64,000 nt of DNA. Origin: a phage. The position numbers and the translations under genes were made by a program. Below, piece by piece: positions 1,398 through 62,897 of this stretch (its first letter is position 1; the number at the start of each line of letters is the position of its first letter). The stretch is taken from the sequence record OZ346151.1; one strand, 5' to 3'. The notes under the pieces are model-generated. The model had not been told where the DNA came from and ran no database searches. It saw nothing but the letters and a program-made list of their open reading frames with translations.

Positions 1398-2239
1398 AAA
1401 TAACATTGTGGCTTCGTGCAGTGATGCACGTCGAAAACCTCTTTAATTGACGGGAAGGCTAAGTTGACTTTTACACCTAAACATGGTAAAAGCTCAATAT
1501 GCTAATCCGCAGCGAAGACTAAAGGGGTGTAGTTAAAATGGCTAGATCAGTTGAGTATCACGGATATACCGTGTTTGATGATGGAACAATACCTTTATCG
1601 AAACGTGATCATACAACAATGTTTTGTTTTGATAATGGTCGAGGTTACCTTTGCGTAACCATGTTCATCGAGGGGAAGCAGTGCACAAAAGGTGTCCACC
1701 ACTTGGTTGCTGAATGCTTTGTATCAAACCCTGATCCTGAAAGGCTCACATGGGTGAACCATAAGGACGGAAACAAATACAACAATGCATACTGGAACCT
1801 TGAATGGACCACCCCTGGTGGAAATATCAAACACGCTTATGATAATGACCTCAGAGTAAGGCCAGTCGGTGAGTATAATGCCAACGCTGTACTGACCGAG
1901 GATGAGGTAACGGAGATTTGCGAACTGTTACAAAGTGGTTTACGACAATGCGAGATTAGGGATCTTGGGTATCCTTATGAGACGGTCAGAGCCATAAAGC
2001 AAAGAAGACAGTGGAAACATATCTCTAAAAACTACACCTGGTAGTAACGTTCAGAGACTATCGAAAGCATAGCGCCAACATAAATTGGTGCGAAGAAGCG
2101 AGTAGAGTAGACCAGCAAGTGCGGTCGAAATGGGAGGTGCCTTGGTAACAAGGTAGTGAGATAGTCCGATCCATACAGGAAACTGTATGGCTGTGCACGT
2201 AATGGTGCGGGGTAGCTTAACGACCTACCTGAACTATTG
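1398..2239 (+). mobile_element. Group I self-splicing intron inserted in DNA polymerase motif C
   Basis: Conserved core elements in canonical order: P AATTGACGGGAAGG (1445-1458), Q AATCCGCAGC (1504-1513), R GTTCAGAGACTA (2049-2060), S GAGATAGTCC (2158-2167). Exon 1 ends with U (1397), intron ends with G (2239). Joining 1397 to 2240 restores ...YYH-DEYQL... in frame. Confidence 0.8.
1538..2044 (+). CDS. HNH homing endonuclease (intron-encoded, between Q and R elements)
   Basis: 168 aa; HNH motifs VHHLVAECFV ... VNHKDGNKYNN ... NLEW; ATG at 1538 inside intron. Confidence 0.85.
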   Translation: MARSVEYHGYTVFDDGTIPLSKRDHTTMFCFDNGRGYLCVTMFIEGKQCTKGVHHLVAECFVSNPDPERLTWVNHKDGNKYNNAYWNLEWTTPGGNIKHAYDNDLRVRPVGEYNANAVLTEDEVTEICELLQSGLRQCEIRDLGYPYETVRAIKQRRQWKHISKNYTW

Positions 2240-3800: not shown

Positions 3801-4055
3801 ATGAAAATTACTCTGAAGCCAGAATGCGTTGAAAATGACCGAGCTTTTAAAGATTGCACAATCGGTGCAATTTATGAAGCAGAGTTTTGTGAGAACCCTT
3901 TGGTAAAAGCCCTTCTGGAAGAAGGAGCTCCTCTATCACAGGAAGAGCTTGATGAGTTGGAAAACTCAGCACAGTGCCTTACCTTTAAAGATGATGAAGG
4001 AGACTCTGTCTGGTGCACTGTTAATGAAGTAGTTTTTGTAAAACCTGAACATTAA
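3801..4055 (+). CDS. hypothetical protein (paralog of 4119..4391)
   Basis: 84 aa; shares KPECVENDRAFKDCT and FKDDEGDSVWCT blocks with next gene. Confidence 0.5.
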   Translation: MKITLKPECVENDRAFKDCTIGAIYEAEFCENPLVKALLEEGAPLSQEELDELENSAQCLTFKDDEGDSVWCTVNEVVFVKPEH

Positions 4056-4058
4056 TGC

Positions 4059-4087
4059 TTGACAACAGTCATAGGGCCTACTATAAT
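4059..4087 (+). promoter_or_regulatory. perfect consensus sigma70 promoter (TTGACA-N17-TATAAT) with -10 in hairpin loop
   Basis: TTGACA 4059-4064, TATAAT 4082-4087; ATAGGGCC / GGCCCTAT inverted repeat flanks the -10. Confidence 0.7.
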
Positions 4088-4118
4088 GGCCCTATCAAAA
4101 CGAAAGGGGACCACAGCA

Positions 4119-4391
4119 ATGACCAAACAATATCAACGAATTAAAGCCAAGGTTAAGCCAGACTATCTGGAGAAGGACTCTGCTTTTCGGGACTGCACAG
4201 CTGACAAAGTTTACACAGGGGCCGTCCTGTTGAACGATGAACTTGAAGTAGATATTCTGGGTAAAGAGGCCACTATTAAGGACGACCAAGGCGATTATGT
4301 TTGCTGCACCACACGTGAGCTAGAAATCTTAGAATACTTCGGTGAAATCTTCACCTCTCTTGATGATTACTTAGATGATGAGGAAGCGTGA
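4119..4391 (+). CDS. hypothetical protein (paralog of 3801..4055)
   Basis: ORF track 4059..4391; start refined to ATG 4119 downstream of the promoter. Confidence 0.5.
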   Translation: MTKQYQRIKAKVKPDYLEKDSAFRDCTADKVYTGAVLLNDELEVDILGKEATIKDDQGDYVCCTTRELEILEYFGEIFTSLDDYLDDEEA

Positions 4392-5784: not shown

Positions 5785-7010
5785 TGAGCGTTATTCAACA
5801 ATTCGCTAACCCGATGAATCCGCGTGAAACTGTTTTACTGGCTCACGGCATGATTAAACGTGTCAGCATCAAGCCTATCAAAGGTGCTGATCCTACAACA
5901 GGTATTAAAACCACTGTGTGGCAAGGTAAGAAAATTGAATCCAGCCACACCATCTCTTTACTGATTTCTGAACTGGATTCCTCTGATAACCTGCTTCAAG
6001 GTGGTGAAGAAGTTTGGATCAGCATGGGTGATAAGCTGCTTAAACCTGGTCATCAAGACTCTGTCTCTGTTAAAATTGATGACAAGTGGGAAACCGTAAC
6101 GCCGGGATGGATCGTAAATATTCCTTTGAAGGCAAACGAGCATAACGGTAAGACCTATTACAAAGGCTCACTGGCTAAGATGGTCAAGCTGGGTGCAGGA
6201 GAGGCTCCAGCAGCGACTCAGCAGCAAAAACAGCAACAAGGTGCACAATCACAAGGCCAGAAGCAGAAACCTCAGCAGAATGCCAATCAGGACGTTTTAC
6301 GCATCTATGGTGATGTGACTCAGATTGTTGGCAACGTGGTTACTGTTAATGACCACAAGATTGGCGAAGGTGCTATGGTTGTAACTGATGAGCAGCTTAA
6401 AGACCTGGTGGTAGGTGGTCGTGTTGCAGCCATTGTTGACAAAGACACCGGAAACATTATCAGTGGTTTCAAGGCCTATCCTCCTAAGGCAGAGAACGGC
6501 ACTCAAGGCTCTGGTGGCAAGCGTAAATCCTCTTACGACCCTATCGGTGTGGAAACGGGGCATAGCATCAATGCGTTGCAGATCATCCTGGATCGCGGGT
6601 TTAAGGTAGACGACCCACTGGGCGTGGCTAAAACACTGCACGTAGTCACCATTGAGCTTAAGAAAGAGTATGCTCAAGCCACCAACCGAGCTGAAGATGA
6701 AGTAGGTGCCAGTGTCGGTAATGCGGTGTTGAACGCTTGTCGCCGTATTGACAAGAAAACGAAAGTTGATGATTTTGCAGTGGCAATTACTGCAGAAGCA
6801 AAAGATGTCTTGACTAATCTAGCTGAGCCGTTGTACGATTGGATCAAGAACGGTGCTGAGTCCACTGACCATCAAGAACCTCAGGCTGCCAAACAGGAAG
6901 CAGCTCCACAGCAAAACACTGTAGACGCTCCTCCTGTAAATGATGCGGAAGATGACCCAATGGATCAGAATCCAGCACAGTACGTCTTTGATGATGACAT
7001 CCCATTTTAA
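5784..7010 (+). CDS. SSB-like protein with conserved acidic C-terminal tail (DDDIPF)
   Basis: 408 aa; Q-rich linker; terminates ...YVFDDDIPF, matching the bacterial SSB C-terminal tip. Confidence 0.55.
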   Translation: MSVIQQFANPMNPRETVLLAHGMIKRVSIKPIKGADPTTGIKTTVWQGKKIESSHTISLLISELDSSDNLLQGGEEVWISMGDKLLKPGHQDSVSVKIDDKWETVTPGWIVNIPLKANEHNGKTYYKGSLAKMVKLGAGEAPAATQQQKQQQGAQSQGQKQKPQQNANQDVLRIYGDVTQIVGNVVTVNDHKIGEGAMVVTDEQLKDLVVGGRVAAIVDKDTGNIISGFKAYPPKAENGTQGSGGKRKSSYDPIGVETGHSINALQIILDRGFKVDDPLGVAKTLHVVTIELKKEYAQATNRAEDEVGASVGNAVLNACRRIDKKTKVDDFAVAITAEAKDVLTNLAEPLYDWIKNGAESTDHQEPQAAKQEAAPQQNTVDAPPVNDAEDDPMDQNPAQYVFDDDIPF

Positions 7011-9790: not shown

Positions 9791-10036
9791 ATGAACAAAG
9801 GGTGGACATTTGTAGACGGCGTTAAAAACATGCCTCTAGGAAAGTATATTGTAGCCATGGCAGATGAGAATGGCAAGGTTGATTTCGGAGTTTGCGAGGT
9901 TGTTCTTGCAGGATCTGGTGACTATGCTCACAAAACTGGGATAATTAACGGTCATTTCTACTTTGATTACAACCCTGTTGTGGCGTATATGGCTATGCCA
10001 GAGTTCGAGCTCCCAAAGGAAGGTGCAGATGTTTAA
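9791..10036 (+). CDS. hypothetical protein
   Basis: 81 aa, RBS AGGAG upstream. Confidence 0.45.
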   Translation: MNKGWTFVDGVKNMPLGKYIVAMADENGKVDFGVCEVVLAGSGDYAHKTGIINGHFYFDYNPVVAYMAMPEFELPKEGADV

Positions 10037-10226
10037 GCTTAAATCTGCATGGAACATCGCTGTGGGGGACGAGATCCGTATCCCAGGTGGAAAGACCATT
10101 ATGAAAATATCTCGTATCGAGTACGAAGGTGATCGTGTATTTCATATCTTTGCAGAAGATGGTCGAGAGATTTATATACAGGTAGGATCTCACATCTATA
10201 TTCGTAAGAAAGGGGAGGACAAATGA
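10029..10226 (+). CDS. hypothetical protein
   Basis: ORF track 9963..10226; ATG 10029 preceded by AAGGAAGG. Confidence 0.4.
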   Translation: MFKLKSAWNIAVGDEIRIPGGKTIMKISRIEYEGDRVFHIFAEDGREIYIQVGSHIYIRKKGEDK

Positions 10227-10552
10227 CAGAGATCATCATTTCAACTGCAGGGTATGTATTCCTGACAATCATTGCACTGGCTATTTTGGTGACAGTGTAT
10301 GGGTTTGTTATCCTTCCTATCCTTGAGACATTTAGTTTGTGTCGGTGTTGGAGAAAAGCTTACGGTCCACAACCATGGAAGGACTGGCCCCACCTGGTGC
10401 GCTTAGCGTTCTCTTATGCTTACGATCACTCCAGTAGTGCATGCATAACCGGATACCACGCCCACAACTGGAGCTGGGAAGGGTTGAGGAAATGGAATGT
10501 TACAAAGACCATACCTCTGCGCATGTACAAACCTAAAAACAAAGACAACTGA
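10223..10552 (+). CDS. hypothetical membrane protein
   Basis: 109 aa, N-terminal hydrophobic helix. Confidence 0.45.
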   Translation: MTEIIISTAGYVFLTIIALAILVTVYGFVILPILETFSLCRCWRKAYGPQPWKDWPHLVRLAFSYAYDHSSSACITGYHAHNWSWEGLRKWNVTKTIPLRMYKPKNKDN

Positions 10553-18391: not shown

Positions 18392-19524
18392 AAGCACATA
18401 GCCGCCAGATCTCAGAATTTACGTACGCTCACCAGTCTATAGCCTGCTAAGTATTTATTCCAACCATAGAATAACGGAATAGTCAATACCTGCATAAAAT
18501 AATTATTCGTGTAAACTGCATAACATAAATCGGCTAGGATGTCAACATTTTTCGTAAACAGCTCGAAATTATAACGGTGAGTTATAATAAACAGAGAAAT
18601 CTTTAGTCGTCTAATGTTTACTGTACATTACTATACTGACTGGAATCATTAGATGACTAAGAGAAAGATAAGAAATCATTAACAATGCAATTGTTTTATT
18701 CGTAACAATAAGGCAACTATGCAAACGGATGGCATGGCGCGACGGAGTCGCGACATAATATAAAAGCAGTAACCATCACCCCCGTGATAGTTTGTCTGCA
18801 AACTATTAATCAGATCATAGTTGCCTTGTATTTAGTTAATCATGACATAACAAGCAAGGCAACTATAGATCTGCTAATAGTTGCCCTGCTTTTATATTAT
18901 GTCATAGATTATTAGCCTGTTAATTGTTAGTCAGTCAAATCAACAACGTTATCATTTCAGTCTTTATTGTTGTTGATCGTTATTGTTATCATGCAAACGA
19001 ATGGCATGGCTTATCATTTTTGAGTAAACAATCTATACGTGAACAGTGAGGCATGCAATAGTAAGGGCGGGAATAATGAGAGTGTAAACTGTCAAGGGTA
19101 ATGTCAATTATATCAATCGTGTCAGTTATGTCACCATTATGTCAGCAGAGTTTTTCTCCTCTTTGTCAAGTGCTGCATGCCCACACAAATAGTAAGAAAT
19201 ATAATTGTTATGTGCGTAAACAGTAACTCATGTTATCAATCCCTGTATGTATCGCCAGTGGTGCGCATAATGGGTATTATGTTAAATTGCCCGTAATGAT
19301 AATGGTTCTCACAATGATAGGTATTCTCATTCCCCCACACAAAATAGATTGCAAATGTTGTGCCACTATGTGAACGGCCTCACCTATTAATTTGCCTCAC
19401 TGCCTCGATATTTGAGAATTATCATAAGAATGAGAAGTATTCCCATTTCGTCCGCCTGGCAGCACTCCAGTCGCTACGGCTCAGAACAGGGCAGAATTGT
19501 GTCCATTCAGATATTTCTGTCTGG

Positions 19525-20732
19525 CTCTTCAGGTCTGTGTGGGAAAAGTCCACCTCTCTGGCGGGGCATGGGGTCATGACGGGAAAATTGCAGGTCAATT
19601 AAAAAATTTACGTGGTGTATGAAGCGCTCTTCAGGTAAGGCATGTATTATGGGATGAAACCCTCTTCAGGCAATGATATTTGTGGGTGTGATATTTGCTG
19701 GAAAGCCAGATATGACGGGACTCCCGGCGGGGCAGGGGTAGTACAGACAGGGGAAATATGGAGGATGTGGTTAGGTGAATTGATCAGACAGGTAGAGTAT
19801 GGAATATGTTACAGGTATGTTAAATAGGGCGGCTGAATATCTGTAGGATTTGTGTGTAAAATCAAAGACTTAAGTGGTGTTGTGGTATTTTCTATAAATA
19901 ATTCAAGTTTAATAGGTAATATTTGTCTCTATTCGCTTTGTGTGGTAAACAGATTCAGATGAGATTGGTTTACAAGCGTATACATAATATACAAATTAAA
20001 GATACAAGAAACCCCCCTCCCCCTTCGGCTACCATTCACCTTTTCCTCTGACTGGTACTTAAACACTTATTCAGACTCTTCAGGTTATCACCCATATATC
20101 ATATGGCAGTGACTGGTGTCCTCCGGCCCCTCTTTCGTCACCCGTCCGCTTCGCCATGCTAATGCCATAGCCAATGGTTCGGTTGTTCACCCTGTTCACT
20201 CAGGTGTATCTCCATACCCCTTCAAAACGAAGAGAACAGAAAACCCGAATTACTCGGTAAAAGAAAAGAGAAGAACTTAATTTTATCAGGATAGGCAAGA
20301 ATGTCAAGGCATGACTGCTCACTAAACAAGCAAACAGTCATGTGTGGGAGGTAAGTGATTGTGGTGGTAGGAAATTTAGTTGAAAGATGTGTTATAGGTG
20401 CTTCCAGCACTTTAGCCGGGCAGCTAATTGTGTGTCAGTCCAGCGGTTCATCCTCTACTTCACTGAAATCAATGTTCATGGTCTCTTCCCAACCATCGAT
20501 CTCAGCACAAGAGTGGAGTTCTTTAGGGTTTACTCCTAAAGCCTCAGCAACAGAGTCTATATTTAACACCTCTGGCAGGTATGATTCATCAAATTCAAGG
20601 TAAATCAGGCCACGAGTGTTGTCAGCTCCACCAAATATTTCTATCTTCATAAAATCTCCTCTGGAAATGAGAGTGTGAACAGGGTTTTATACGTCCCAAT
20701 GCACAGGAATTATGCACGTTTTCCTCTTCAGG
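19525..20732 (+). repeat. Five dispersed copies of the 9-mer CTCTTCAGG in a noncoding region
   Basis: Copies at 19525-19533, 19627-19635, 19662-19670, 20076-20084, 20724-20732, all same strand. Confidence 0.5.
20435..20650 (-). CDS. hypothetical protein
   Basis: 71 aa; last ORF of leftward array. Confidence 0.4.
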   Translation of the reverse strand: MKIEIFGGADNTRGLIYLEFDESYLPEVLNIDSVAEALGVNPKELHSCAEIDGWEETMNIDFSEVEDEPLD

Positions 20733-21344: not shown

Positions 21345-21656
21345 CTATACCCATGAGGGCTTATCAAGGTTGGAGTAGCTGAAAGGTGTCAAAAGGTGAC
21401 TGTCAAAATCTCTCAAACTATCTAAATCTTTTTCCTCGTCCTGACACCATCTGTGCCTACATTTATTGTTGTAGTGCATAGAATGCATAGCGTTCTGCAA
21501 CTTAACAGGTACAAGTGATTCAGGAGTAGATAGTATTGTTGGGTATGCCAGAATCACCTCAAACAGTGGAAACACATCGAAACTAAAGTCTACCTCTGCA
21601 GAGGTTGATGGCATATAGGAGTATTTAGCCGCCTTTGTAGACATAATCCACCTCAC
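21345..21656 (-). CDS. hypothetical protein
   Basis: 103 aa ORF. Confidence 0.4.
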   Translation of the reverse strand: MRWIMSTKAAKYSYMPSTSAEVDFSFDVFPLFEVILAYPTILSTPESLVPVKLQNAMHSMHYNNKCRHRWCQDEEKDLDSLRDFDSHLLTPFSYSNLDKPSWV

Positions 21657-22775: not shown

Positions 22776-23039
22776 TCATTTATCCTTTTCGTCAAGAACT
22801 TTTTTAAATCTTTCAGGGATATCTCCCGTTCTTAGATAGTTCATGACCTCGCAAGGTTCCCACTTGAATTTCTTACAGAGCAGGGCGGCTGAGATTGTTT
22901 CATTGCGAAAAGAAAGGATATTAATATCCCACTCTGAGAACCCCAACTTCCGAAGGGTAGCTACAGAAATCCTCACCGCAACCCAGCAGCAAAAACATGC
23001 AACAAACGCCACTGCTACAACCCACATCAGGATGTTCAT
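22776..23039 (-). CDS. hypothetical membrane protein
   Basis: 87 aa, N-terminal TM. Confidence 0.45.
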   Translation of the reverse strand: MNILMWVVAVAFVACFCCWVAVRISVATLRKLGFSEWDINILSFRNETISAALLCKKFKWEPCEVMNYLRTGDIPERFKKVLDEKDK

Positions 23040-23128
23040 ATAAGCACCTTACTGAAATACAAGACACAGTGTTAAGGTTACTGACCAGCAAATAATTAGC
23101 AGGACCATTGCAACCTTGGCAAGATTTA

Positions 23129-23416
23129 TCATAGTGCCTCTAAGATTTCATATCCTTCAGGTCGAAATACAAGCCACTCCGTGGCTCCGTTTGGTCGATA
23201 CGCTTTATACAGAACAACCTGATCTCGGCACATGCACATGGCTACATAGTTTTCATCCACACCTGCAGCCTGCATTGCATCTTCTTCTCCGGCAACTGCT
23301 TTGCTTACAACTTCCTTGGTAGGTAGGTGTGCGATCAGCTCGTCACCATCATTAATTCCAAAATGACTGAGTTCTCCATTGGTATCTTTAATCTTAATCT
23401 TAACCAGATCTTTCAT
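23129..23416 (-). CDS. hypothetical small protein
   Basis: 95 aa, begins MKDLVKIKIK. Confidence 0.45.
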   Translation of the reverse strand: MKDLVKIKIKDTNGELSHFGINDGDELIAHLPTKEVVSKAVAGEEDAMQAAGVDENYVAMCMCRDQVVLYKAYRPNGATEWLVFRPEGYEILEAL

Positions 23417-23745
23417 TAGTCTTTCTCCAGGTTCAAAGGTCCTAAGATTTCATATGCCAGATTAGAAGTTACCAGAGGGTCTTCTGCATCTTTAGTATTG
23501 TACCACCCGTGAATAACCAGAGTCCCACTTTGTTTCATATCCAACTGGAACTGTTCTGCAGTTTCCTCATCCAGCTCCAAGATTTCCATAAGGTATTTGA
23601 TGTTAGGAAGGTATGCAGCTGTTACAGTTCCCTCCACCAAACCTTCGGGCCAACCTACATCCGGATGACAAGTAGGAACCAGGTTGGTCAACTTAATGGT
23701 GTACGCTTTTTCTGCACGAGCCTTCAGTAACGGGTCAATCTTCAT
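23416..23745 (-). CDS. hypothetical protein
   Basis: 109 aa, coupled. Confidence 0.45.
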   Translation of the reverse strand: MKIDPLLKARAEKAYTIKLTNLVPTCHPDVGWPEGLVEGTVTAAYLPNIKYLMEILELDEETAEQFQLDMKQSGTLVIHGWYNTKDAEDPLVTSNLAYEILGPLNLEKD

Positions 23746-24095
23746 TATTCGTCCTCCTCTTCGGTGCCTGCTTCCAGTAATAAGTTAAGAATATCTTCTG
23801 CACAAGGCTCATAGAACTCTTGGCCTTCATTATCGATGATTTTGTAGTCATCTCCACGAATAATCAGGGGATCACTCTCAAAATTATCGAGACCTTTAAC
23901 AACGACAACACGATCGATTGCCATCATTGTAAGAACTTTATCGACATCTTCCTCTGCTACACCATACTGCAGCAGAATGTCTTTGGTAGGAGGAACAGCA
24001 TCCACCACAACGCCGTTACCAAAACCTTCTGGAAGTTTAGCTAAAATATCTTCCGGAACCACATTCACATCAAAACCGGTAATTTCTACTTTCAT
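23745..24095 (-). CDS. hypothetical small protein (MK-V/I-EITG start family)
   Basis: 116 aa, begins MKVEITGFDVN. Confidence 0.45.
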   Translation of the reverse strand: MKVEITGFDVNVVPEDILAKLPEGFGNGVVVDAVPPTKDILLQYGVAEEDVDKVLTMMAIDRVVVVKGLDNFESDPLIIRGDDYKIIDNEGQEFYEPCAEDILNLLLEAGTEEEDE

Positions 24096-24356
24096 TTACA
24101 GCACCTCTTCGTCAACTACTTCATAAAAATGGCCTGGGATTGCAATAGCGTTCTCACCTTCACCTGCAAACACAGTTCCGTCAAGAATCAACATCATAAG
24201 AATTTCTGTAATATCCTCTTCCGGAACGTTGCCAAAACCTTTAATCAGCTCGTAGGTTGGAATATTTACATCTAAGATGTCACCATCTTTAGAACGGAAA
24301 TCAACACCGTCCTGAATCTCTGCCGTTTCAAGGTTTTTCAATTTAATCTTCATCAA
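24096..24356 (-). CDS. hypothetical small protein
   Basis: 86 aa, begins MMKIKLKNLE. Confidence 0.45.
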   Translation of the reverse strand: MMKIKLKNLETAEIQDGVDFRSKDGDILDVNIPTYELIKGFGNVPEEDITEILMMLILDGTVFAGEGENAIAIPGHFYEVVDEEVL

Positions 24357-24432
24357 TCGGTCTCCTGTCTTGTTAAGATGAAGGTATTATTTCACACAGG
24401 GTTGGCGTTGTCAACACCTGTGTGCAAGAAAA

Positions 24433-24828
24433 TTACTGAAACAGTGCGGATAAATTACCTTCTGGTGGGAACTTATCTGCCAAAAACGGTGTTAGCACAG
24501 TAGCCTTCTGAAGATCTGGGGTCCACTCGTTGTTCAGAACATCCCAGTAGTACGCAATGTTGCTGTGTGGGTGCCGCATTACGAACTTTTTCCCTTCGTA
24601 GTCGTCTGAAACCTCTACAGAAGAAATAACAACAGAATCTTCAAGGGTTTCTTCATAGAAAGATCCCCCTTCAAATTTCCAACGAGATGCAAGAGCCCCT
24701 GCCTTGAACGCTGCAGATAACGGACTGTCGGCAAGAACATACATTTCTTGCACTCTGTCGCTGCGATCTTTGCTTCTTACGTTGTATACAGTATCTGAGC
24801 TATACTCAACACGGTATAGGCTTACCAT
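24433..24828 (-). CDS. hypothetical protein (paralog of 26640..27038)
   Basis: Shared block HP-S---YW----WTP with 26640..27038. Confidence 0.5.
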   Translation of the reverse strand: MVSLYRVEYSSDTVYNVRSKDRSDRVQEMYVLADSPLSAAFKAGALASRWKFEGGSFYEETLEDSVVISSVEVSDDYEGKKFVMRHPHSNIAYYWDVLNNEWTPDLQKATVLTPFLADKFPPEGNLSALFQ

Positions 24829-25160
24829 TACCGCACCTCCTCAATAACTTCCACATCTGAACCTACCACAAATGCAAAAGGACAGGTTTCATGAAAGACA
24901 TCTGGATCGCCGCCAAGCTTGCTAACAATCTCTCCACCACTAATAAACACAAGCTCACCGATATTCATCAGATTGCTGAAATAGTACCCATAATGATTAA
25001 AGAATGCAGCAGGGTCAGGTAGACTGGTAGCCTCAAGCACTACATCGGTTGAGGTTACTTTCTTATCATAACCTCTCGCCTTTTGAGATGCAAGATCTGC
25101 AGAATCCTCAGGAGACCGGAGATGCACAGGAATTGTTTCACCAATAAAGCGTACTTTCAT
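24828..25160 (-). CDS. small protein, MKVK-family paralog
   Basis: ORF track 24828..25187 starts at TTG; ATG at 25160 gives MKVRFIGE...; C-terminus VVGSDVEVIEEVR resembles 27040..27294. Confidence 0.5.
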   Translation of the reverse strand: MKVRFIGETIPVHLRSPEDSADLASQKARGYDKKVTSTDVVLEATSLPDPAAFFNHYGYYFSNLMNIGELVFISGGEIVSKLGGDPDVFHETCPFAFVVGSDVEVIEEVR

Positions 25161-25164
25161 ATTA

Positions 25165-25428
25165 TCACCCAACAACCATAGCTTCAAAAGGAGTCATGAA
25201 CGAATAAACGGCATCATCATCTGCTTCAGGGAATGCTCCCAAAGACTTCATATCTGAACCCTTGACAAATACAAGGTTTTGATCAAAGGCTTCTTGGGGG
25301 TCAATCCGATACATATTTCGTAGAATATCGCTTACCTCCTCATCAAGAGGTGAGTATGCTGTGCACGTTTTTCCGATCAAGCTTTGAGAATCAGGGTATC
25401 CACCTGAAGTTTTAAAATAAACAATCAT
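25165..25428 (-). CDS. hypothetical small protein (paralog family)
   Basis: 87 aa; block LVFVKGSDMKSLGA resembles the family. Confidence 0.45.
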   Translation of the reverse strand: MIVYFKTSGGYPDSQSLIGKTCTAYSPLDEEVSDILRNMYRIDPQEAFDQNLVFVKGSDMKSLGAFPEADDDAVYSFMTPFEAMVVG

Positions 25429-25519
25429 ATAGTATCACCTCTGGTAAGAGATTGGGATTCCTTTCCCACAAATAATTACAAATCTTCCTTATCGAGGAAG
25501 TATGCTAATCCAAGCAGGA

Positions 25520-25789
25520 TTATTCCTCTACAATCTCATACACATCAGGAGTTACAATCAACTCTTCTCCGTTACCCGGTGCAACAAACACCACCAAACC
25601 TTCAGGTGTGTGCTTTTTAGCCATCTCGATAACATCTTCTCGCAGAGCTGGCTCCATCAGATCAAAACCTTCACCCAGGGCATCACGAACCACCTTCATA
25701 TAGTCAACTGGTTGTGCTTCAACAATCATGCCTTCAACCAGTCCACAGTTTTTGTCTGCCAGCTCAGTTTTGAATAATTTAATTTTCAT
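25520..25789 (-). CDS. hypothetical small protein
   Basis: 89 aa; ends ELIVTPDVYEIVEE. Confidence 0.45.
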   Translation of the reverse strand: MKIKLFKTELADKNCGLVEGMIVEAQPVDYMKVVRDALGEGFDLMEPALREDVIEMAKKHTPEGLVVFVAPGNGEELIVTPDVYEIVEE

Positions 25790-25926
25790 TTAGAGGTCTC
25801 CTCAATTATTTGATATTAATAGCCGTAACCTAACACATTAACTACAACTGCGATTGCAAACATAATTTCAAAGCATGCAATCTCTACATTTGGGACTAAT
25901 TTCTTAATCACACCCATTGTAGCACC

Positions 25927-26247
25927 TCATTCTCCAAAGTCAATCTTTACTTTGCCTTTCCCCTTACCTTTCTTTCCACCGCATTTAGCCAGCTGACGTG
26001 CTGCAACATCTACCATACGGTCAGTTGCCTCGTAAGCATCACTGCCTTTAGCCTTGGCAATAACTTCTTTTCCAGAATTGTCAAAAATGAACGCCATAAC
26101 TTCCTGGTGATCATTTTCAACTTTTACACTTACACGTGCATAGTTAACAGAGGGATGTAAACGCTCCAGCTTGGACATTTTGCGGGAAATAAAAGATACC
26201 ATACCTTCTGTGATTTCTACATTGTTGCCAGTGATTTCAATTTGCAT
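25927..26247 (-). CDS. hpf: Ribosome hibernation promoting factor / RaiA (YfiA-HPF family) homologue
   Basis: 106 aa; N-terminus MQIEITGNNVEITEGM closely matches E. coli HPF MQLNITGNNVEITEAL (recalled from memory); RBS AAGGAA. Confidence 0.7.
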   Translation of the reverse strand: MQIEITGNNVEITEGMVSFISRKMSKLERLHPSVNYARVSVKVENDHQEVMAFIFDNSGKEVIAKAKGSDAYEATDRMVDVAARQLAKCGGKKGKGKGKVKIDFGE

Positions 26248-26331
26248 AACGTGTTCCTTTTAAGGAAGAGGGAATAACTATCTCTCTTTGAAAACAATGA
26301 TACTAAATCTGAAGCGTTGTGTCAACAGTTT

Positions 26332-26622
26332 TTACAGCTTGTTGTCGATAGTTTTTAAAATATCCACAGCAAGATCTGCCATTTTTCGAACATACTCTGC
26401 AAACTCAACAGGATCCTTGATCAAAGAATTCACAGGGTCGTACCCTAGAGCGTTTAAAATGGCTGCAGCATCTACAACCTTCTCATCATTTGCGAAGATC
26501 TCTCCGTCAAACTTGTAGGTCCATTTTGAGTCAACCTTAGCAGAGCAGGGTTTGTCCATGCTTGTTACACCATCGTCTTTAAACTCTCCTGCGTTATCAA
26601 TATTTAGAATTAAATCCATCAT
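26332..26622 (-). CDS. hypothetical protein
   Basis: 96 aa ORF. Confidence 0.45.
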   Translation of the reverse strand: MMDLILNIDNAGEFKDDGVTSMDKPCSAKVDSKWTYKFDGEIFANDEKVVDAAAILNALGYDPVNSLIKDPVEFAEYVRKMADLAVDILKTIDNKL

Positions 26623-26639
26623 GGTGACACCTCACTGTT

Positions 26640-27038
26640 TCAGTTTAGCTTTTCTTCAACAACCCCATAACTTGGGGCAGAGTCAAGAGCTTTCTGGTTT
26701 AAAAGTGGCGTAGCAGAATCTGCAAACGGTGTCCAAGTTTTTGTTCTGGAATTCCAGTAATGCTTCACTCTGGAATCTGGATGCACTATAACAAAAACTT
26801 TTTCACTTGTCAACACATTAATTTCTTCTACACCCTTGCTGATAATTTCTCCGTCATAGCCCCCAGTCTGGTATCCTTCGTACCAGGTTCTTGCATAGGC
26901 ATAGCCAGCCTGCCAGCATGCAGCCTCCTCCGAGGTGGAGACTACGTAGAAGTCTTTCTCAAATTCCGGAATACGCCCTTGCTTTACGCTCCAAGCTCCG
27001 CGAATTTTCATTGTTACTTTGAAAAGCTTGTTCTTCAT
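26640..27038 (-). CDS. hypothetical protein (paralog of 24433..24828)
   Basis: 132 aa; shared HPDSRVKHYWNSRTKTWTP block. Confidence 0.5.
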   Translation of the reverse strand: MKNKLFKVTMKIRGAWSVKQGRIPEFEKDFYVVSTSEEAACWQAGYAYARTWYEGYQTGGYDGEIISKGVEEINVLTSEKVFVIVHPDSRVKHYWNSRTKTWTPFADSATPLLNQKALDSAPSYGVVEEKLN

Positions 27039-27039
27039 A

Positions 27040-27294
27040 CTACCGCTCTACAATCTCTACGTCTGTTCCTACACCGAAGGCATAGTAATGTTCTTCCCCA
27101 AAGTAATACTTGGGGACACCCGCTTTGATCAGATCTAACCCGCGAATAAATACCACACCGTGTGATACAGTGGAATGCTTCTGACGCACAGGATCGTTGT
27201 CAGGCAACCATTCAAAGTACACCGCAGGTACAACCTTTCCCTTCAGGAAGGATTGTCCCAAGTAGACGTTAGAATCAAGAATTTTAACCTTCAT
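27040..27294 (-). CDS. small protein, MKVK family
   Basis: MKVKILDSNVYLGQ...GKVVPA...GTDVEIVER. Confidence 0.5.
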   Translation of the reverse strand: MKVKILDSNVYLGQSFLKGKVVPAVYFEWLPDNDPVRQKHSTVSHGVVFIRGLDLIKAGVPKYYFGEEHYYAFGVGTDVEIVER

Positions 27295-27511
27295 TCTCGT
27301 CCTCCACTATCTCTGCATCCTCACCAAGGGCAAAGTTGTAGGTCCACTGGCTGTCAAAGCAGTCCTGAGATGCACCAGCGGCAATAAGATCTGCACCTTT
27401 TATTTTTAAAAGGTCAGGATAATCTTCGTTAGGGATAGCGGTAAACACTTTCCCCACTAAGGGCTCCTGACCAATATAGAAGCTTGAATCTAAAACTTTA
27501 ACTTTCATCAA
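27284..27511 (-). CDS. small protein, MKVK family
   Basis: MMKVKVLDSSFYIGQ...GKVFTA...GEDAEIVEDE. Confidence 0.5.
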   Translation of the reverse strand: MMKVKVLDSSFYIGQEPLVGKVFTAIPNEDYPDLLKIKGADLIAAGASQDCFDSQWTYNFALGEDAEIVEDENEG

Positions 27512-27795
27512 CGGTCTCCCTCAGGCGGTTGTGGGACGTAAACACTGTTACGAATATCGTCAGCAGTGTAGTAATAAGTGGTTCCAACCCTATCTCGGGC
27601 TGCAATGTACTCTGCTATACCAACAAGTGCCATTGATTTGGTGGCGTATCTTCCCCACTCGTTAGCTCCCCAGTAGAATTTAGACCAGTAGGGAATAAGA
27701 CCGAACAAATATACCTTTTGACGAACTTCCCAGTAAGTGCCTTTTCCGACAAGTTTAAACTCTACTTCACTACTGTTAATCTTTTTCATTATCAA
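27508..27795 (-). CDS. hypothetical protein
   Basis: 95 aa ORF. Confidence 0.45.
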   Translation of the reverse strand: MIMKKINSSEVEFKLVGKGTYWEVRQKVYLFGLIPYWSKFYWGANEWGRYATKSMALVGIAEYIAARDRVGTTYYYTADDIRNSVYVPQPPEGDR

Positions 27796-28088
27796 TCTCC
27801 CTCTACCGTGGTCGGATTGTCAGTAAGAAATTGAGCATTGGCTGGAGGCACGCCTGACATTTTCCACACAACCATAAGTTTATAACCAGGCACTCTATTA
27901 AGTGCAGATCGAGTAGAGTTTGTGCACGTATACTTTCGCTTTCCAAACCCGTTCTCCATCATAATCCAGTACCCAGTATCTTTGTCACCAGGTATCGGTA
28001 GACCACCTTCATCAACCCACTGAATTGACCACGGCACGATGGCTACAGCTTTATATTTAAACTTTTTAAACCACTCAAAAAGTTTCAT
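27792..28088 (-). CDS. hypothetical protein
   Basis: 98 aa ORF. Confidence 0.45.
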   Translation of the reverse strand: MKLFEWFKKFKYKAVAIVPWSIQWVDEGGLPIPGDKDTGYWIMMENGFGKRKYTCTNSTRSALNRVPGYKLMVVWKMSGVPPANAQFLTDNPTTVEGD

Positions 28089-28091
28089 AAT

Positions 28092-28181
28092 TCAGCCCCG
28101 CATAGACATAATCACTATAAATAGGCAAACAATGAATCCGAATGCCACGCCACCCATAAACGTTAATATTGATGCAATCAT
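28092..28181 (-). CDS. small hydrophobic peptide (29 aa), below ORF-track threshold
   Basis: ATG at 28181-28179; MIASILTFMGGVAFGFIVCLFIVIMSMRG; GAGG upstream. Confidence 0.3.
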   Translation of the reverse strand: MIASILTFMGGVAFGFIVCLFIVIMSMRG

Positions 28182-28388
28182 AGTCAATCAGCCTCGCCTG
28201 GCAACTCTTCTACCTTAACATGCCGAAAAGTGTTACCGTAATGGTTGATCCATGACATCAGCTCACTTTCTTGCTCTTCCTCTGGGATGAACTCTCGAAT
28301 ACTGACAAGTTTTAAGAAAACCTAATCACAATCTGCACCCATTCTACCAGACAGACAATAGTGCTTCATAAAAACCCTCCCGCCCGGT

Positions 28389-28583
28389 TTAGAATATTGC
28401 TTCTTCCATTGCGCCTGAGAGCAACAAAGAGGTGATCTGGCTAACATTCATCTCAGACTCTACTTCCTCCCCTTTGAAAGGTTCGCGGCAGAATAGGACT
28501 GTTTCAGGACTTTTACTTCGAACAATATAATACAAATCATTCAATGTGTTGTAGTAATAAGTGTTAAAACGTAAGTTTTTCAT
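28389..28583 (-). CDS. hypothetical protein
   Basis: 64 aa ORF. Confidence 0.4.
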   Translation of the reverse strand: MKNLRFNTYYYNTLNDLYYIVRSKSPETVLFCREPFKGEEVESEMNVSQITSLLLSGAMEEAIF

Positions 28584-28867
28584 TTTCTAGTCCTCTTCTT
28601 AGATTTTTGGGGAGAAACGCTTTCTGCAATACGAGACAGACGTTCTTCTGAAGCCTTACCTACTCCAGGTTTTTTGAGTGGATTATCTTTATGACCACAA
28701 TCCAACTGGATATTGGATACCTCTCCAACTTTGTAAGTCAATTCTAGCAAAAGGTTGTCGTCCTTGTCAAATGTTTTTACGATAAATTTTTTATCGTTCT
28801 CCTGAACTTCATATCTGGTACCTGCAGTATACAGCATGGTGCCATCAGCATAGGATATCCAGATCAT
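28580..28867 (-). CDS. hypothetical basic protein
   Basis: 95 aa ORF. Confidence 0.45.
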   Translation of the reverse strand: MIWISYADGTMLYTAGTRYEVQENDKKFIVKTFDKDDNLLLELTYKVGEVSNIQLDCGHKDNPLKKPGVGKASEERLSRIAESVSPQKSKKRTRK

Positions 28868-29211
28868 TGAGCCTCCTTTTGCTGCAACAGCATTAACTCT
28901 TTGTTAGAGATCTTTACTGCTGTTTTTATTGTTCCATCTTCACGAAACCACGACCAGAACTCTACAGTGTCACCACTATCAAGTAAAGCATGCCCATGGT
29001 AAAAATCTTTGTCCTTAGACAGTTTCTCATCTATATCTGCATCAACACATTCGTGATCCAGAGCATTTTGCCTGAACGCATCGGTTATGCCAATGCACGC
29101 CTTGCTCTCAAGACTGGTATATCCGATATCTTTTAATTCAGTTTCCCAAGTCCAGTACCCTATAAAAGCTAAAACAGCTACCCACAGTAATAACGTTTTA
29201 ATCTTTGGCAT
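28864..29211 (-). CDS. hypothetical signal-anchored protein
   Basis: 115 aa; N-terminal hydrophobic segment. Confidence 0.45.
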   Translation of the reverse strand: MPKIKTLLLWVAVLAFIGYWTWETELKDIGYTSLESKACIGITDAFRQNALDHECVDADIDEKLSKDKDFYHGHALLDSGDTVEFWSWFREDGTIKTAVKISNKELMLLQQKEAQ

Positions 29212-29273
29212 TCTCTCTACCTCTTTCTTAGTTTATTTCACTATGGCACATCCTTTGTGCCATATCTCAACTA

Positions 29274-29744
29274 CTACTTAAATAGTAGTTCAAAATAGTG
29301 CAAAATTAACAGAAGTTGAACTACACCTAGTGCAACGGCGAGTATGTTAATCTTAGAATCGAAAAACTTCTTAACTTTTACTCTAAAAGGTTCCTTAATG
29401 TCCTTTACGATCCTATCTATAGATGACCTCATATCTCTGATTACCATCCTGAACATTAAAGACGGATGCTCCCCCATCTCCGTAACGGAATCGAAAACAT
29501 ACTCTCTTCGGTCATAAGGGCCGCCAGCTCTGCGTATTAACCTCTCCACAGAGACCTCGAACGTCACACCTGTAACGTAATCATCTATAACAAGTCGTGA
29601 CGGGTCTTTACCTTTACTATCAAGAGGTATCAAAGTTATCTTTCCAGATTTTGTTAAAATTTCCCCTTTTTCAAGCAAGGTGTACCAATGCTCTCTGCCA
29701 AGACTGTTGAGGCACGTTTTTACATATTTAACAAACATCGTCAC
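29274..29744 (-). CDS. hypothetical protein with C-terminal TM segment
   Basis: 156 aa ORF. Confidence 0.45.
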   Translation of the reverse strand: MTMFVKYVKTCLNSLGREHWYTLLEKGEILTKSGKITLIPLDSKGKDPSRLVIDDYVTGVTFEVSVERLIRRAGGPYDRREYVFDSVTEMGEHPSLMFRMVIRDMRSSIDRIVKDIKEPFRVKVKKFFDSKINILAVALGVVQLLLILHYFELLFK

Positions 29745-29926
29745 CCCTCATCGCACGTCTGATATAACCACTCTATAAAATCTTGATACCATTCGCCCTC
29801 TGAGCGCTCCGTAGGCCAATAATCTTCACCCTCTCGTGCATTAAAATCTGAGTATTCAACTTTCCACTCCTTTACCAGCTCGTGGAGAAGGTTTTCAGCC
29901 TGCTCTAAAGATTTATTTTTTACCAT
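29741..29926 (-). CDS. hypothetical protein
   Basis: ORF track 29741..29944 starts at TTG; ATG 29926 preceded by AAAAAGGAG. Confidence 0.4.
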   Translation of the reverse strand: MVKNKSLEQAENLLHELVKEWKVEYSDFNAREGEDYWPTERSEGEWYQDFIEWLYQTCDEG

Positions 29927-30145
29927 TGCTGTCTCCTTTTTCAAGATAGTTATACATCAGAACTGCACCACCTAAGATGGCTACCAGTAACAATATCCCA
30001 GATAGCATCTCAATAAACATGGCTTGAAACACTGGAAGGTCTCCCTAAATTAACGCACCATTTTAAATACATGCTCTTTTCCCATAAAGGTGCCTGGCTA
30101 AGATCTGCGTAGAACGCAATCTCTTTAAGAACAGTATAGATAGTT

Positions 30146-30373
30146 TTAGGTGCGGTCTCCATCCCTACTCTCCTTCCTGATATTCTTGTAGTAATCAACT
30201 AGGCACATTATTACGATGAAGATAACAACAGGCCAAAAAGGTGCAGCAGTGATGATGGTGATAAAATCATCAAACTTCACCCTTCGTCTGGACACGATGC
30301 ATACACCTGTCAAGAATACCGCTGTTATAACGGACATTACCAGGTAACCTATTAGCACAACATTTATACTCAT
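30146..30373 (-). CDS. small membrane protein (two TM helices)
   Basis: 75 aa, two hydrophobic helices. Confidence 0.45.
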   Translation of the reverse strand: MSINVVLIGYLVMSVITAVFLTGVCIVSRRRVKFDDFITIITAAPFWPVVIFIVIMCLVDYYKNIRKESRDGDRT

Positions 30374-30403
30374 TGGTCCTCCCTTTGTAGGTTAAATTGT
30401 ATA

Positions 30404-30937
30404 CTACAAATGGTCGCTGAGGGTGTCAAGAAAATTATCCCGTTCTTTCTCAGAGTTTTCATGTGTGTAGCTGAAAAACATATCGAGAATAACCTTATTG
30501 ATATATTCCAGCTCCTCTGTGTTCAGATGCTTAGCAGGATCTACAATGACATCCCAAATATCATACAGACCGCACTCATGATACCCATAACGCCACTCAA
30601 TTGTCAAGCTGAGCGGCAAATCTTTACCTTCACAAACAACCTTCCATCTACATATGTTGGTATCTGGTCGTACCTGTGCACGGTACACCTGCACAAAATC
30701 CAATTTGAATTTGAGGTACTCGTCATACAATTTAAGCACAAAGCTCTCGATTTGTGGAGACACTTTTGCAGCAAACTGTGCGTATTCGTACTTGCACTGG
30801 ATGATCTTTCTGCGTTTTGCAGTTAAATTTTTTGCCGCCAGTTGTTCTTCAGTGTATCTCCACCTACGATCAACAAACGCAACAGGGTCTTTGTCCCCAT
30901 AGAGGTCTTCCCAGTTAATCAGAAGCATACCTGTCAC
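30404..30937 (-). CDS. hypothetical protein
   Basis: 177 aa ORF. Confidence 0.5.
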   Translation of the reverse strand: MTGMLLINWEDLYGDKDPVAFVDRRWRYTEEQLAAKNLTAKRRKIIQCKYEYAQFAAKVSPQIESFVLKLYDEYLKFKLDFVQVYRAQVRPDTNICRWKVVCEGKDLPLSLTIEWRYGYHECGLYDIWDVIVDPAKHLNTEELEYINKVILDMFFSYTHENSEKERDNFLDTLSDHL

Positions 30938-31167
30938 TCCTCCACAACTTCAAGGCCTTTACCGCCTCGCTCTGGCAGATTACTTAAAGATAGGTAATAC
31001 ATATAATCAGGAGAGATCCTGCCAGACTCTGCACCTGCAGCTAGTAAATCCTTCCCTTTAACCAGGACAACATTCTCGTTTGCAGATAGCCGTTTTGCTT
31101 CCACAATTTTACCAACACAGTCAACCAAGGAAGGGTACCCTAAATCTGTAAGAAATTTAACTTTCAT
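30934..31167 (-). CDS. small protein, MKVK family
   Basis: MKVKFLTDLGY...GKIVEA...LVKGKDLLAAGA...LEVVEE. Confidence 0.5.
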   Translation of the reverse strand: MKVKFLTDLGYPSLVDCVGKIVEAKRLSANENVVLVKGKDLLAAGAESGRISPDYMYYLSLSNLPERGGKGLEVVEE

Positions 31168-31204
31168 GCTACCTCCTACCTACCGTCCCTGGTAAGATAA
31201 ATTA

Positions 31205-31603
31205 TTACTGAACAGAGCGCGGTGCTGGGAAGGATAACTCTTCTAAAGAGAAGATTTCATTTCCTACCACCCAAGTTGCTGGGTCATCTGGATCAACAGG
31301 TTGGATAATCATTACCTCATCCGCCTCGCACACACGTTTCCCACCCATAGTAGCGTCAGCCACTAACATACGCGGCTCTTCAGAAATGCACAGGTAGCCA
31401 CCTCGGCCCACTGTTCCTTCCACGGGATCCTGCCCTTTGACCACAATGAATACCTTCTCTCCTGTGGCGATATTACTTTTCACACTAACAGTTTGACCAA
31501 CTTTAGATGTACCGATCTTGGTGGCTTCAAACATTAAATCCCGAATTACTGTTGCATAGTTGCCGGACACTTTCTTACCTTCTTTAGTAATCTCAATCTT
31601 CAT
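31205..31603 (-). CDS. hypothetical protein
   Basis: 132 aa; begins MKIEITKEGK. Confidence 0.45.
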   Translation of the reverse strand: MKIEITKEGKKVSGNYATVIRDLMFEATKIGTSKVGQTVSVKSNIATGEKVFIVVKGQDPVEGTVGRGGYLCISEEPRMLVADATMGGKRVCEADEVMIIQPVDPDDPATWVVGNEIFSLEELSFPAPRSVQ

Positions 31604-31872
31604 AACCTAGGCTCCTTAAATGAATCTATGTAATCAATTAAATCCCAAGCATCGCGATGGGCTGTCAGAGGGTATACTTCTCCGAGAGGGATCATAGCAA
31701 TAAGTCTATCAAAAACCCAGTCTGGACGCAACATTTTATGGTGATATTCCCACTCACCTTCCACAGATTTTTTCTGAGTGATCAGGATCTCTGTGTAGTG
31801 TTTCGCCTGTCTTGAGTAGATTGAAAATGACTTGTACATAAAGACCCCCTCTTGTTGAAAACAACAATACAC
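31600..31872 (-). CDS. hypothetical protein
   Basis: 90 aa ORF. Confidence 0.4.
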   Translation of the reverse strand: MYCCFQQEGVFMYKSFSIYSRQAKHYTEILITQKKSVEGEWEYHHKMLRPDWVFDRLIAMIPLGEVYPLTAHRDAWDLIDYIDSFKEPRL

Positions 31873-37472: not shown

Positions 37473-38320
37473 TCTACCAAAGACTGAGGTGTCCAGACCT
37501 AAACTTAATGTGATGAATGGAGTCTGCTGTCTCCTCCCTGTGTTTCCACAGGGCCAGACTATCTCTTACTCTACTTCAATAAGATAATAACCCTTTATTG
37601 TGAGATGCTTACCTTCGGCATTTCCTTCGATAGCCCTATGAACGTTACCTACGTTCAAATTTAAGGCTTTTGCACAGGCATAGAGTGAAGGATATTCACC
37701 CACCAAGGTTTTACCTTTGTATGCCTGCACTTTCCTATAGCACTTACCTGGACAAAGTCCTGTTCGGAAAGCATGTCTCTTATTATCTTCCGGCAAAACC
37801 CACTCTAGGTTAGACGGATGATCATTCAATGTATTGCCATCTTTATGATTCACTTCCCAGTTTTCAGGGTCTTCTGGGACATCCGGCAAACAATACAAGG
37901 CAACAATCCTTGAGGTTTGGATTCGAATCTTTTTACCTTTGTGGTTGAAAGAGTACATATAACGGCGTTTAACATGCTTGTTACCTTTTCCATAACCTCC
38001 CCACAATATTGGGTGTAGCATTCCACGTTTTCCGTATACGTTTCCAACCTCATCAATCACATAGTTTGATTCTTCACCATTAAGAATGATCTTTTTCATA
38101 GAGCCTCTCCATTTCGAAGTTAGTATTTCAACTAACCCCTACACTACTTGGTTCAGAAATGTTTGTCAAGCATTTCTGCCTTTCGTTAGTCGTTACAACC
38201 GTTCCAACTCCTGTAAGAACTAGTCACGGGATTGGCATAGCTTTCGCCTTAGCGTTCCCCGTTAGCCGGATTTACCGACCCCTCTTATGAGGTTAGGAGA
38301 GTTTTACAACGGCCAGTTTG
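37473..38320 (-). mobile_element. Putative group I intron (with HNH ORF) splitting nrdD; exact splice sites undetermined
   Basis: On the minus strand: P-like AACGGGGAACGC, Q-like AATCCCGTGA, R-like GTAACGACTAA (about 38184-38196), S-like AAGAGATAGTCTGG (37553-37566) just after the HNH stop. About 220 nt GC-rich non-coding before the HNH ORF. Confidence 0.55.
37566..38099 (-). CDS. HNH homing endonuclease (within nrdD insertion)
   Basis: 177 aa; VNHKDGNTLNDHPSNLEW motif. Confidence 0.85.
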   Translation of the reverse strand: MKKIILNGEESNYVIDEVGNVYGKRGMLHPILWGGYGKGNKHVKRRYMYSFNHKGKKIRIQTSRIVALYCLPDVPEDPENWEVNHKDGNTLNDHPSNLEWVLPEDNKRHAFRTGLCPGKCYRKVQAYKGKTLVGEYPSLYACAKALNLNVGNVHRAIEGNAEGKHLTIKGYYLIEVE

Positions 38321-62809: not shown

Positions 62810-62820
62810 AATAGTAAATA

Positions 62821-62897
62821 CTCCGCGTAGCTCAGCTTGGTAGAGCGCCTGATTTGGGATCAGGAGGTCGAGTGTTCGAATCACTCCGTGGAGACCA
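62821..62897 (+). tRNA. tRNA-Pro (anticodon TGG), CCA encoded
   Basis: Acceptor CTCCGCG/CGTGGAG (C1:G72 as in Pro tRNAs), anticodon loop TTTGGGA, T-loop TTCGAAT. Confidence 0.85.

Follow-up and report, generated by a model that had tools for sequence, protein, structure and literature searches.

A repeated cassette of small genes in a Vequintavirus array is linked to phage growth on a uropathogenic Escherichia coli strain

Accessory and anti-defence islands of virulent phages, such as the hypervariable early regions of T-even phages and the anti-CRISPR loci, hold small unannotated genes that are driven by host promoters and, while not needed in the laboratory, are required on certain hosts, and the content of such loci typically varies between close relatives. 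In this study, we have explored a stretch of phage DNA of 64,000 nucleotides (sequence record OZ346151.1; hereafter the window, meaning the whole of it) and, within it, an array of small leftward genes at positions 23129 to 31603. Set against general knowledge of those islands, the array resembles them as a cluster of small unannotated genes that can be spared in the laboratory and are needed on a given host, but differs in being nearly invariant across about 120 genomes and under purifying selection. A second comparison lies in the same leftward block. In Bas54, a phage subjected to saturated transposon mutagenesis (HIDEN-SEQ preprint, bioRxiv 10.1101/2025.11.20.689424), the genes bas54_0063 (a MoxR ATPase) and bas54_0140 are described as validated counter-measures to DS-28, a predicted defence system of the host strain CFE311 (bioRxiv 10.1101/2025.11.20.689424). 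With some of the genes studied here, bas54_0140 shares a place in a block of small unannotated genes and a phenotype, being non-essential on K-12 but strongly depleted on CFE311; unlike them, it has a known defence partner, whereas the family genes have been matched to none, and it falls in PHROG 12072 with no sequence similarity to the families described below. Its ortholog in the window (21345-21644) has no paralog there. Based on our results, we propose, with a probability of roughly 0.55, that the array holds conserved host-specific accessory genes of an rV5-like phage, whose products would neutralise a strain-specific host barrier.

The window comes from an rV5-like myovirus (Vequintavirus murica), and over positions 23000-31700 it shares 99.3% identity with Escherichia phage nomo. 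The original prediction, made from the sequence, had described about 25 small leftward genes with at least three paralog families among them. The array is real: each gene named there is a genuine minus-strand open reading frame (ORF) that matches an annotated coding sequence of nomo, where the region corresponding to 23129-31603 holds 27 such sequences (nomo_95 to nomo_121), every one of them on the minus strand and almost all of them labelled 'hypothetical'. GC skew confirmed that coding runs leftward between about 20 kb and 58 kb, and a search of the array for RNA families and tRNAs found neither. Three groups of related genes together account for 12 of the 15 genes between 23129 and 27511. 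The array region is matched by 122 phage records; 18 GenBank records titled 'Campylobacter phage' match the region closely, at least two of them being about 98% identical, and their host label looks doubtful.

Paralogy was judged against all six-frame ORFs of the window (480) and later against 2,273 ORFs taken from the window and eight related loci, together with five-fold shuffled decoys. All five genes proposed for Family 1 (27040, 27284, 30934, 24828 and 25165; genes are named here by their first coordinate, Table 1) were confirmed by phmmer, hhalign, permutation and profile searches. The pair 27040 and 27284 gave a phmmer E-value of 1e-10, hhalign 98.7% and a permutation z of 25, and 27284 was joined to 30934 at hhalign 94.4% and z=13. 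A profile built on this three-gene core found 25165 (E=1.8e-4) and 24828 (E=6.4e-4), with no other window match among the 2,273 ORFs and none among the decoys, and a deep profile of 93 sequences assembled without orthologs of 24828 recovered that gene at E=1.5e-6. Family 2 (24433 and 26640), which had been recognised by a shared HP-S---YW----WTP block, was borne out as well (blastp 1.5e-8, hhalign 94.7%, z=16.2). The block (HP.S...YW......WTP) is invariant in the family alignment, and both genes fall in phrog_7379 (E 1e-66 to 1e-74), a group for which no function is given. No homologs of Family 2 were found outside Vequintavirus.

It could be argued that such similarities are a matter of chance or composition among short acidic proteins with MK starts, and that these ORFs are largely non-functional filler. 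This would describe the apparent link between Family 1 and a looser group of array genes, which consists of shared MK[IV]K starts and YE[IV]VEE ends and failed every profile test, and also the misgrouping of 31205 by its start alone. Families 1 and 2, however, pass the permutation, decoy, hidden Markov model (HMM) and profile-profile tests, and a confidently modelled Family 1 fold, ratios of non-synonymous to synonymous substitution (dN/dS) of 0.02-0.3 and transposon phenotypes all stand against it. For these two families chance is already refuted, and for the array as a whole we give it hardly any weight.

Read from the coordinates, the order Family 1, Family 1, Family 2 (F1-F1-F2) appears twice in the direction of transcription, as 27284>27040>26640 (cassette B) and as 25165>24828>24433 (cassette A). 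The genes of cassette B are separated by an 11-nt overlap and then a 1-nt gap; those of cassette A by a 4-nt gap and then a 1-nt overlap, a tight packing that suggests translational coupling. When the Family 1 cores are compared across the two cassettes, proteins in the same position are 33% and 37% identical and those in different positions 30% and 24% (54 shared columns), which fits a duplicated cassette. The sequences would be consistent with duplication of the cassette as a whole, though over these 54 columns independent tandem duplications may account for them too.

The evidence for a role of the cassette comes from Bas54, which was identified as phage MaxBurger (MZ501093.1). Its array proteins are 99-100% identical to those of the window for all relevant genes, so that the phenotypes of Bas54 can be transferred to the window. 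On K-12, all array genes are non-essential except for bas54_0151 to bas54_0153, which are classed as 'intermediate' with 69-73% of their TA sites hit (bioRxiv 10.1101/2025.11.20.689424). On the uropathogenic strain CFE311, zero insertions were recovered in bas54_0150, bas54_0151 and bas54_0152 (24433, 24828 and 25165; log2 fold changes of -6.77, -6.17 and -7.16, q=0), and bas54_0157 (26640) was depleted 4-fold (log2 fold change -2.14, q=0); the other array genes were neutral, the immediate neighbours bas54_0149, bas54_0154 to bas54_0156 and bas54_0158 included (bioRxiv 10.1101/2025.11.20.689424). On CFE311, cassette A is indispensable and the second copy of Family 2 contributes. Among the passages that a search of the main text of the preprint returned, none names the cassette genes by locus tag (bioRxiv 10.1101/2025.11.20.689424). 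In its Extended Data Table 8 (supplementary file 9), the title of sheet S6 announces a comparison of K-12 with CFE303, its console line names CFE311, and its stored numbers are those of sheet S7; the CFE303 comparison seems to be missing from the stored sheets.

These data bear on the earlier suggestion that tandem expansion of small genes marks a fast-evolving host-interaction or anti-defence locus. Its host-interaction part is supported, in that the genes are accessory, dispensable on K-12 and, for four of them, needed or contributing on CFE311; its fast-evolving part did not survive the comparisons reported below. How the products might act can be sketched in outline. They would bind and neutralise a strain-specific host factor, most probably an anti-phage defence system that CFE311 has and K-12 lacks. 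Within a cassette the products may act together, possibly as a heterodimer of the two Family 1 proteins with the Family 2 protein, and the paralogs may have diverged to cover different or overlapping targets. A counter-defence role for the cassette is plausible, and it is the most likely mechanism because of the class of phenotype and because of the validated neighbour bas54_0140.

The arrangement of cassette A permits a simpler account of its phenotype, in which the requirement on CFE311 is for Family 2 alone: insertions in the two upstream Family 1 genes would lower the expression of 24433, and the role of Family 1 would be unrelated or redundant. The three genes are co-oriented and all but contiguous, as described above, 24433 closes the unit and is followed by a neutral gene, and 26640 has a phenotype while the adjoining Family 1 genes 27040 and 27284 have none. 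On the other side, our promoter scan of the 25429-25519 gap upstream of cassette A found no convincing promoter, so that the unit is probably transcribed by read-through from genes before it. Insertions in two of these, bas54_0154 and bas54_0155, are nevertheless neutral, which argues against strong transposon polarity; depletion is moreover equally complete in all three genes. We consider this account unlikely, and retain the reading in which the whole of cassette A serves to overcome a host barrier.

The second alternative draws in part on the evolution of the array. Pooled dN/dS was 0.02-0.3 for all array genes, with 0.06-0.18 for Family 1 and 0.024 (24433) and 0.063 (26640) for Family 2. 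Gene order is fixed: 117 of 121 records are colinear over 23129-27600, and five divergent members of the genus have an ortholog of each array gene in the same order as in nomo. Ortholog lengths agree within a few residues, and in Families 1 and 2 they are identical save for one 85-aa ortholog of 27040. The paralogs themselves are old (22-44% identity). On these comparisons, the array contains anciently duplicated small genes held intact by purifying selection, contrary to the rapid evolution that had been predicted. Two genes depart from the rest in their synonymous divergence (dS) among orthologs, which in 27040 (0.92) and in 31205 (Table 1) exceeds the value of adjacent genes four- to five-fold; orthologs of 27040 share 76-82% protein identity, and 27040-27294 and 31205-31603 are suggested to be divergent alleles exchanged by recombination.

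The main rival to counter-defence is a role in host physiology, in which the products are host-takeover factors or modulators that tune a conserved process, for example translation or the ribosome, and CFE311 differs from K-12 in its physiology or in the allele of the target. High conservation, a fixed gene order and the lack of diversifying selection would fit a conserved target better than an arms race, a homolog of the ribosome hibernation factor HPF is embedded in the array, and bas54_0151 to bas54_0153 are already 'intermediate' on K-12. The HPF homolog (25927-26247) is itself, however, non-essential on K-12 and neutral on CFE311 (Bas54 transposon sequencing, bioRxiv 10.1101/2025.11.20.689424). 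In addition, when phage genes can be spared on one strain and are absolutely required on another of the same species, strain-variable immunity is the typical setting, and the block also holds a proven anti-defence gene. We therefore hold a physiological role to be improbable, and neutralisation of a strain-specific barrier to be the better description of the cassette.

Several points nevertheless weigh against this preferred description. No defence system has been matched to any of the family genes, the follow-up in the preprint being confined to bas54_0063 and bas54_0140, and a single clinical host (CFE311) is documented because sheets S6 and S7 hold identical numbers. Insertions in 24828 and 25165 may have been lost through polarity on 24433, with which the two genes are co-oriented and tightly packed. 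Three Family 1 genes (27040, 27284 and 30934) and the whole of the loose group show no phenotype on CFE311. The AlphaFold2 (AF2) model of Family 2 was unusable, with a predicted local distance difference test (pLDDT) of 43.5, so that its fold was not obtained. Finally, we found no time-resolved transcriptome of a V5-like phage in the literature.

For Family 1, modelling was more informative. The AF2 model of 30934, based on an alignment of 32 sequences, reached a pLDDT of 95.5 and a predicted template-modelling score of 0.83, and shows a small beta-barrel with two short helices. From this confident model of one member, Family 1 proteins are predicted to be mini-barrels of 70-110 aa, probably SH3-like, with one variable insertion site; small beta-barrels of the SH3 or KOW type are the nearest known comparison. 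In BFVD, an 87-aa protein of Shigella phage CM1, taken by its length as the ortholog of 25165, matches the model with a TM score of 0.73, and another entry, of 110 aa and adjacent in accession, which may be the ortholog of 24828, matches it weakly (E=0.85). Every structural neighbour in this database is a small phage protein without a characterised role, among them proteins of RB49, Sf20, SRT8 and VpV262.

The distribution of Family 1 is wider than that of the array. Word-indexed searches of 5.8 billion proteins gave matches only in V5-like phages and in mEp021-type E. coli prophages, and an exhaustive profile search of 1.84 billion representatives gave 77 matches at E<=1e-3, most of them 65-85 aa and full-length, a few carrying two or three domains and one fused to DUF3310. 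Homologs of 30934 with 41-49% identity occur in the temperate non-lambdoid E. coli phages mEp021, mEp554 and mEp013, placed between a Q-like regulator and the lysis genes (6001-6228 in both L008 and L009). In mEp021 the homolog is mEp021_40 (L008), one of several small genes in this accessory slot. Its neighbours 38, 39 and 41 were considered as further copies and gave no detectable match, and the paper on mEp immunity I says nothing on gp40. More distant relatives occur as two copies per phage contig (L015, and a tandem pair in L018 at 9998-10425). The adjacent pair of L018 is found fused in P0100, a two-domain protein of another phage whose halves are 68% and 66% identical to it, a hint that neighbouring Family 1 proteins work together. 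In other genera of the Vequintavirinae, the 20 kb around ClpP yielded no family members; those covered were a Seunavirus-like Salmonella phage, Mydovirus, Avunavirus and Certrevirus.

Against the existing classifications, no family member matched Pfam or NCBIfam, the PHROGs that do match are all of unknown function, and sequence searches of the PDB returned nothing for Families 1 and 2. Three Family 1 genes of the window match phrog_5009 (27040 at 4e-27, the other two as in Table 1), and 25165 matches it more weakly (1.2e-4); the distant relatives match phrog_5009 and phrog_13367, to which phrog_7345 and phrog_8603 can be added. The PHROGs differ from our grouping in splitting 24828 (phrog_13661) and 25165 (phrog_13920) off Family 1, and they record no function, cassette or fold. 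Family 1 belongs to a wider phage-only family that comprises phrog_5009, phrog_13367 and relatives. It is tempting to combine the cassette, the fold and the phenotype in a more specific proposal, namely that F1-F1-F2 would encode a three-part inhibitor, an SH3-like heterodimer with the Family 2 protein, of an immunity system of CFE311, and would represent a new anti-defence family; we offer this tentatively, as a possibility that falls well short of even odds.

The third family of the original prediction, which joined 31205 to 23745 by their MK-V/I-EITG-like starts with 24096 and 25520 loosely related, fell apart as defined. Against 23745, 24096 and 25520, the gene 31205 gave z from -0.3 to 0.1 and hhalign 1.5%, and the PHROGs are separate; with z about 0 against each proposed partner, 31205-31603 was ruled out as a member. 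We put a weak signal between 31205 and HPF (hhalign 8.9%, z=3.2) down to noise. What remained of the family is the relationship between 23745 and 24096 (Table 1), with 25520 as a marginal case. The best non-seed match of a profile of these two genes is 23129, at E=0.1, and 25520 and 23416 are consistently the leading non-seed matches of the loose-group profile. For pairs other than 23745-24096 and 23129-23745, z ranged from 1.8 to 4.5, with profile E-values of 0.1 to 2e-4. We suggest a weaker but probably real group of 23129, 23745 and 24096, to which 23416 and 25520 may belong. The MK[IV]K starts and YE[IV]VEE ends are common to many proteins of Family 1 and of this group. A single superfamily of the two was rejected at the sequence level, since for the loose-group genes the deep Family 1 HMM gave E>=13, and hhalign was at most 1.5% and z at most 1.8. 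We also observed that several records, nomo and S127 BCL3 among them, label 25520-25789 a 'sigma 54 modulation factor'. The gene lacks a Pfam S30AE match and aligns to the true HPF homolog at hhalign 0.8%, and the label is probably a propagated misannotation.

Sigma-70-like sites were more numerous than in shuffled sequence (37 vs 26.7 +/- 5.1), and of the 14 that agree with the consensus at 10 or more of its 12 positions, 13 lie on the coding strand. Sites in intergenic gaps were found at 24414, 25943, 26325, 28204, 30429 and 31892. Host-type promoters have been reported throughout this unit in the rV5 genome paper, which leaves the paralogs unmentioned (PMC3606486). This promoter layout suggests that the array may be transcribed by the host RNA polymerase. 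The coding-strand bias fits the original view of an early-type region, of which the word 'early' itself stays a presumption drawn from sequence.

The sole difference in gene content that we found in the array is a six-gene block at 27792-29738, which is missing from phage MaxBurger (Bas54) and at least 80% of which is present in 114 of 118 related records. Within it, a 61-aa gene (28184-28369, minus strand) carries a G>A change (TGG>TAG amber at codon 16) relative to nomo and CarlMeissner, and is inactivated in the window. Records annotate in this block an 'HNH homing endonuclease' or a 'putative/virion structural protein', apparently for one gene, 29274-29738 (minus strand); the best Pfam match of that gene is DUF1454 (E=0.23, not significant), its PHROG is 'virion structural protein', and its C-terminus is hydrophobic. 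Elsewhere in the window, about 2 kb at 18392-20434 (approximate limits) are non-coding, low in GC (0.39) and placed at the switch of coding strand. According to the HIDEN-SEQ preprint, the Bas54 equivalent takes no transposon insertions (bioRxiv 10.1101/2025.11.20.689424), and a cis element that the phage needs, for example an origin or a regulatory region, is suggested. The tRNA cluster at 62085-62897 includes an ARAGORN call of 'tRNA-???' at 62554-62652 (plus strand) with a four-base anticodon (atcc), for which Rfam gives a weak tRNA match of 35.5 bits. Further paralog pairs lie outside the array, 3801-4055 with 4059-4391 (both plus strand; blastp E=7e-9) and 1538-2044 (plus) with 37566-38099 (minus; 4e-6).

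Table 1. Positions of the array genes and related features in the window, all on the minus strand.
Feature	Position	Strand	Evidence or remark
Family 1 gene, 74 aa, first of cassette B, = bas54_0159	27284..27508	-	phrog_5009 6e-37; neutral on CFE311
Family 1 gene, 84 aa, small insert, second of cassette B, = bas54_0158	27040..27294	-	z=25 to 27284
Family 2 gene, 132 aa, third of cassette B, = bas54_0157	26640..27038	-	phrog_7379 8e-74
Family 1 gene, 87 aa, helical insert, first of cassette A, = bas54_0152	25165..25428	-	core profile; z=6.5 to 30934
Family 1 gene, 110 aa, long insert, second of cassette A, = bas54_0151	24828..25160	-	z=7.8 / 7.9 to 27040 / 27284
Family 2 gene, 131 aa, third of cassette A, = bas54_0150	24433..24828	-	phrog_7379 2e-66; start overlaps stop of 24828-25160
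Family 1 gene, 77 aa, solitary minimal form, = bas54_0166	30934..31167	-	phrog_5009 8e-36; neutral on CFE311
Loose 'Family 3-prime' core, 116 aa	23745..24095	-	z=7.9 to 24096, 6.7 to 23129; leave-one-out profile E=2e-4
Loose-group core, 85 aa	24096..24353	-	phmmer 6e-4, hhalign 42%, z=7.9 to 23745
Loose-group core, 95 aa, not listed in the original prediction	23129..23416	-	z=6.7 to 23745, 3.9 to 24096
Loose-group marginal candidate, 109 aa	23416..23745	-	core profile E=0.012 (0.0014 with 25520 added); z=4.2 to 23745
Loose-group marginal candidate, 89 aa	25520..25789	-	core profile E=0.004, top non-seed; z=4.5 to 24096
Gene outside all families here, 132 aa	31205..31603	-	own phrog_5748; dS 0.74
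Ribosome hibernation factor (HPF/S30AE) homolog	25927..26247	-	Pfam PF02482 4e-15; mid-array
Variable six-gene block, without family members	27792..29738	-	MaxBurger (Bas54) matches 61 bp (L014 6667-6753)
Sigma-70-like promoter TTGACA-17-AATAAT with TG, starts 24096>23129 unit	24386..24414	-	11/12; gap downstream of cassette A
Sigma-70-like promoter TTGACA-17-TATCAT	26297..26325	-	11/12; gap upstream of HPF
bas54_0140 ortholog, 100% identical, anti-defence gene	21345..21644	-	1.5 kb outside array; CFE311 log2 fold change -5.48

Part of this picture was already known: the genes are annotated and assigned to PHROGs, the phenotype is in a public supplement, and phage accessory arrays that bear paralogs are well known as loci. 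What this study adds is the corrected composition of the families, the architecture of the cassette, the predicted fold and wide distribution of Family 1, and the link between the cassette and a conditional-essentiality signal that had gone unremarked in the supplementary table of the preprint.

In conclusion, V5-like phages infect a broad range of hosts and count among the candidates for E. coli therapy, and our results link four of their unannotated genes to growth on a clinical urinary isolate, where they would act as host-range determinants. The confident model of one Family 1 member offers a predicted fold for a phage-only family that extends across many phage groups. The duplicated F1-F1-F2 cassette, with the weaker independent phenotype of its second Family 2 copy, gives a concrete unit in which to find a new phage-host interaction. 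If the three-part inhibitor were to prove true, mini-barrels of the phrog_5009 type, including those of mEp021-like phages, would represent a general phage module for binding host proteins.

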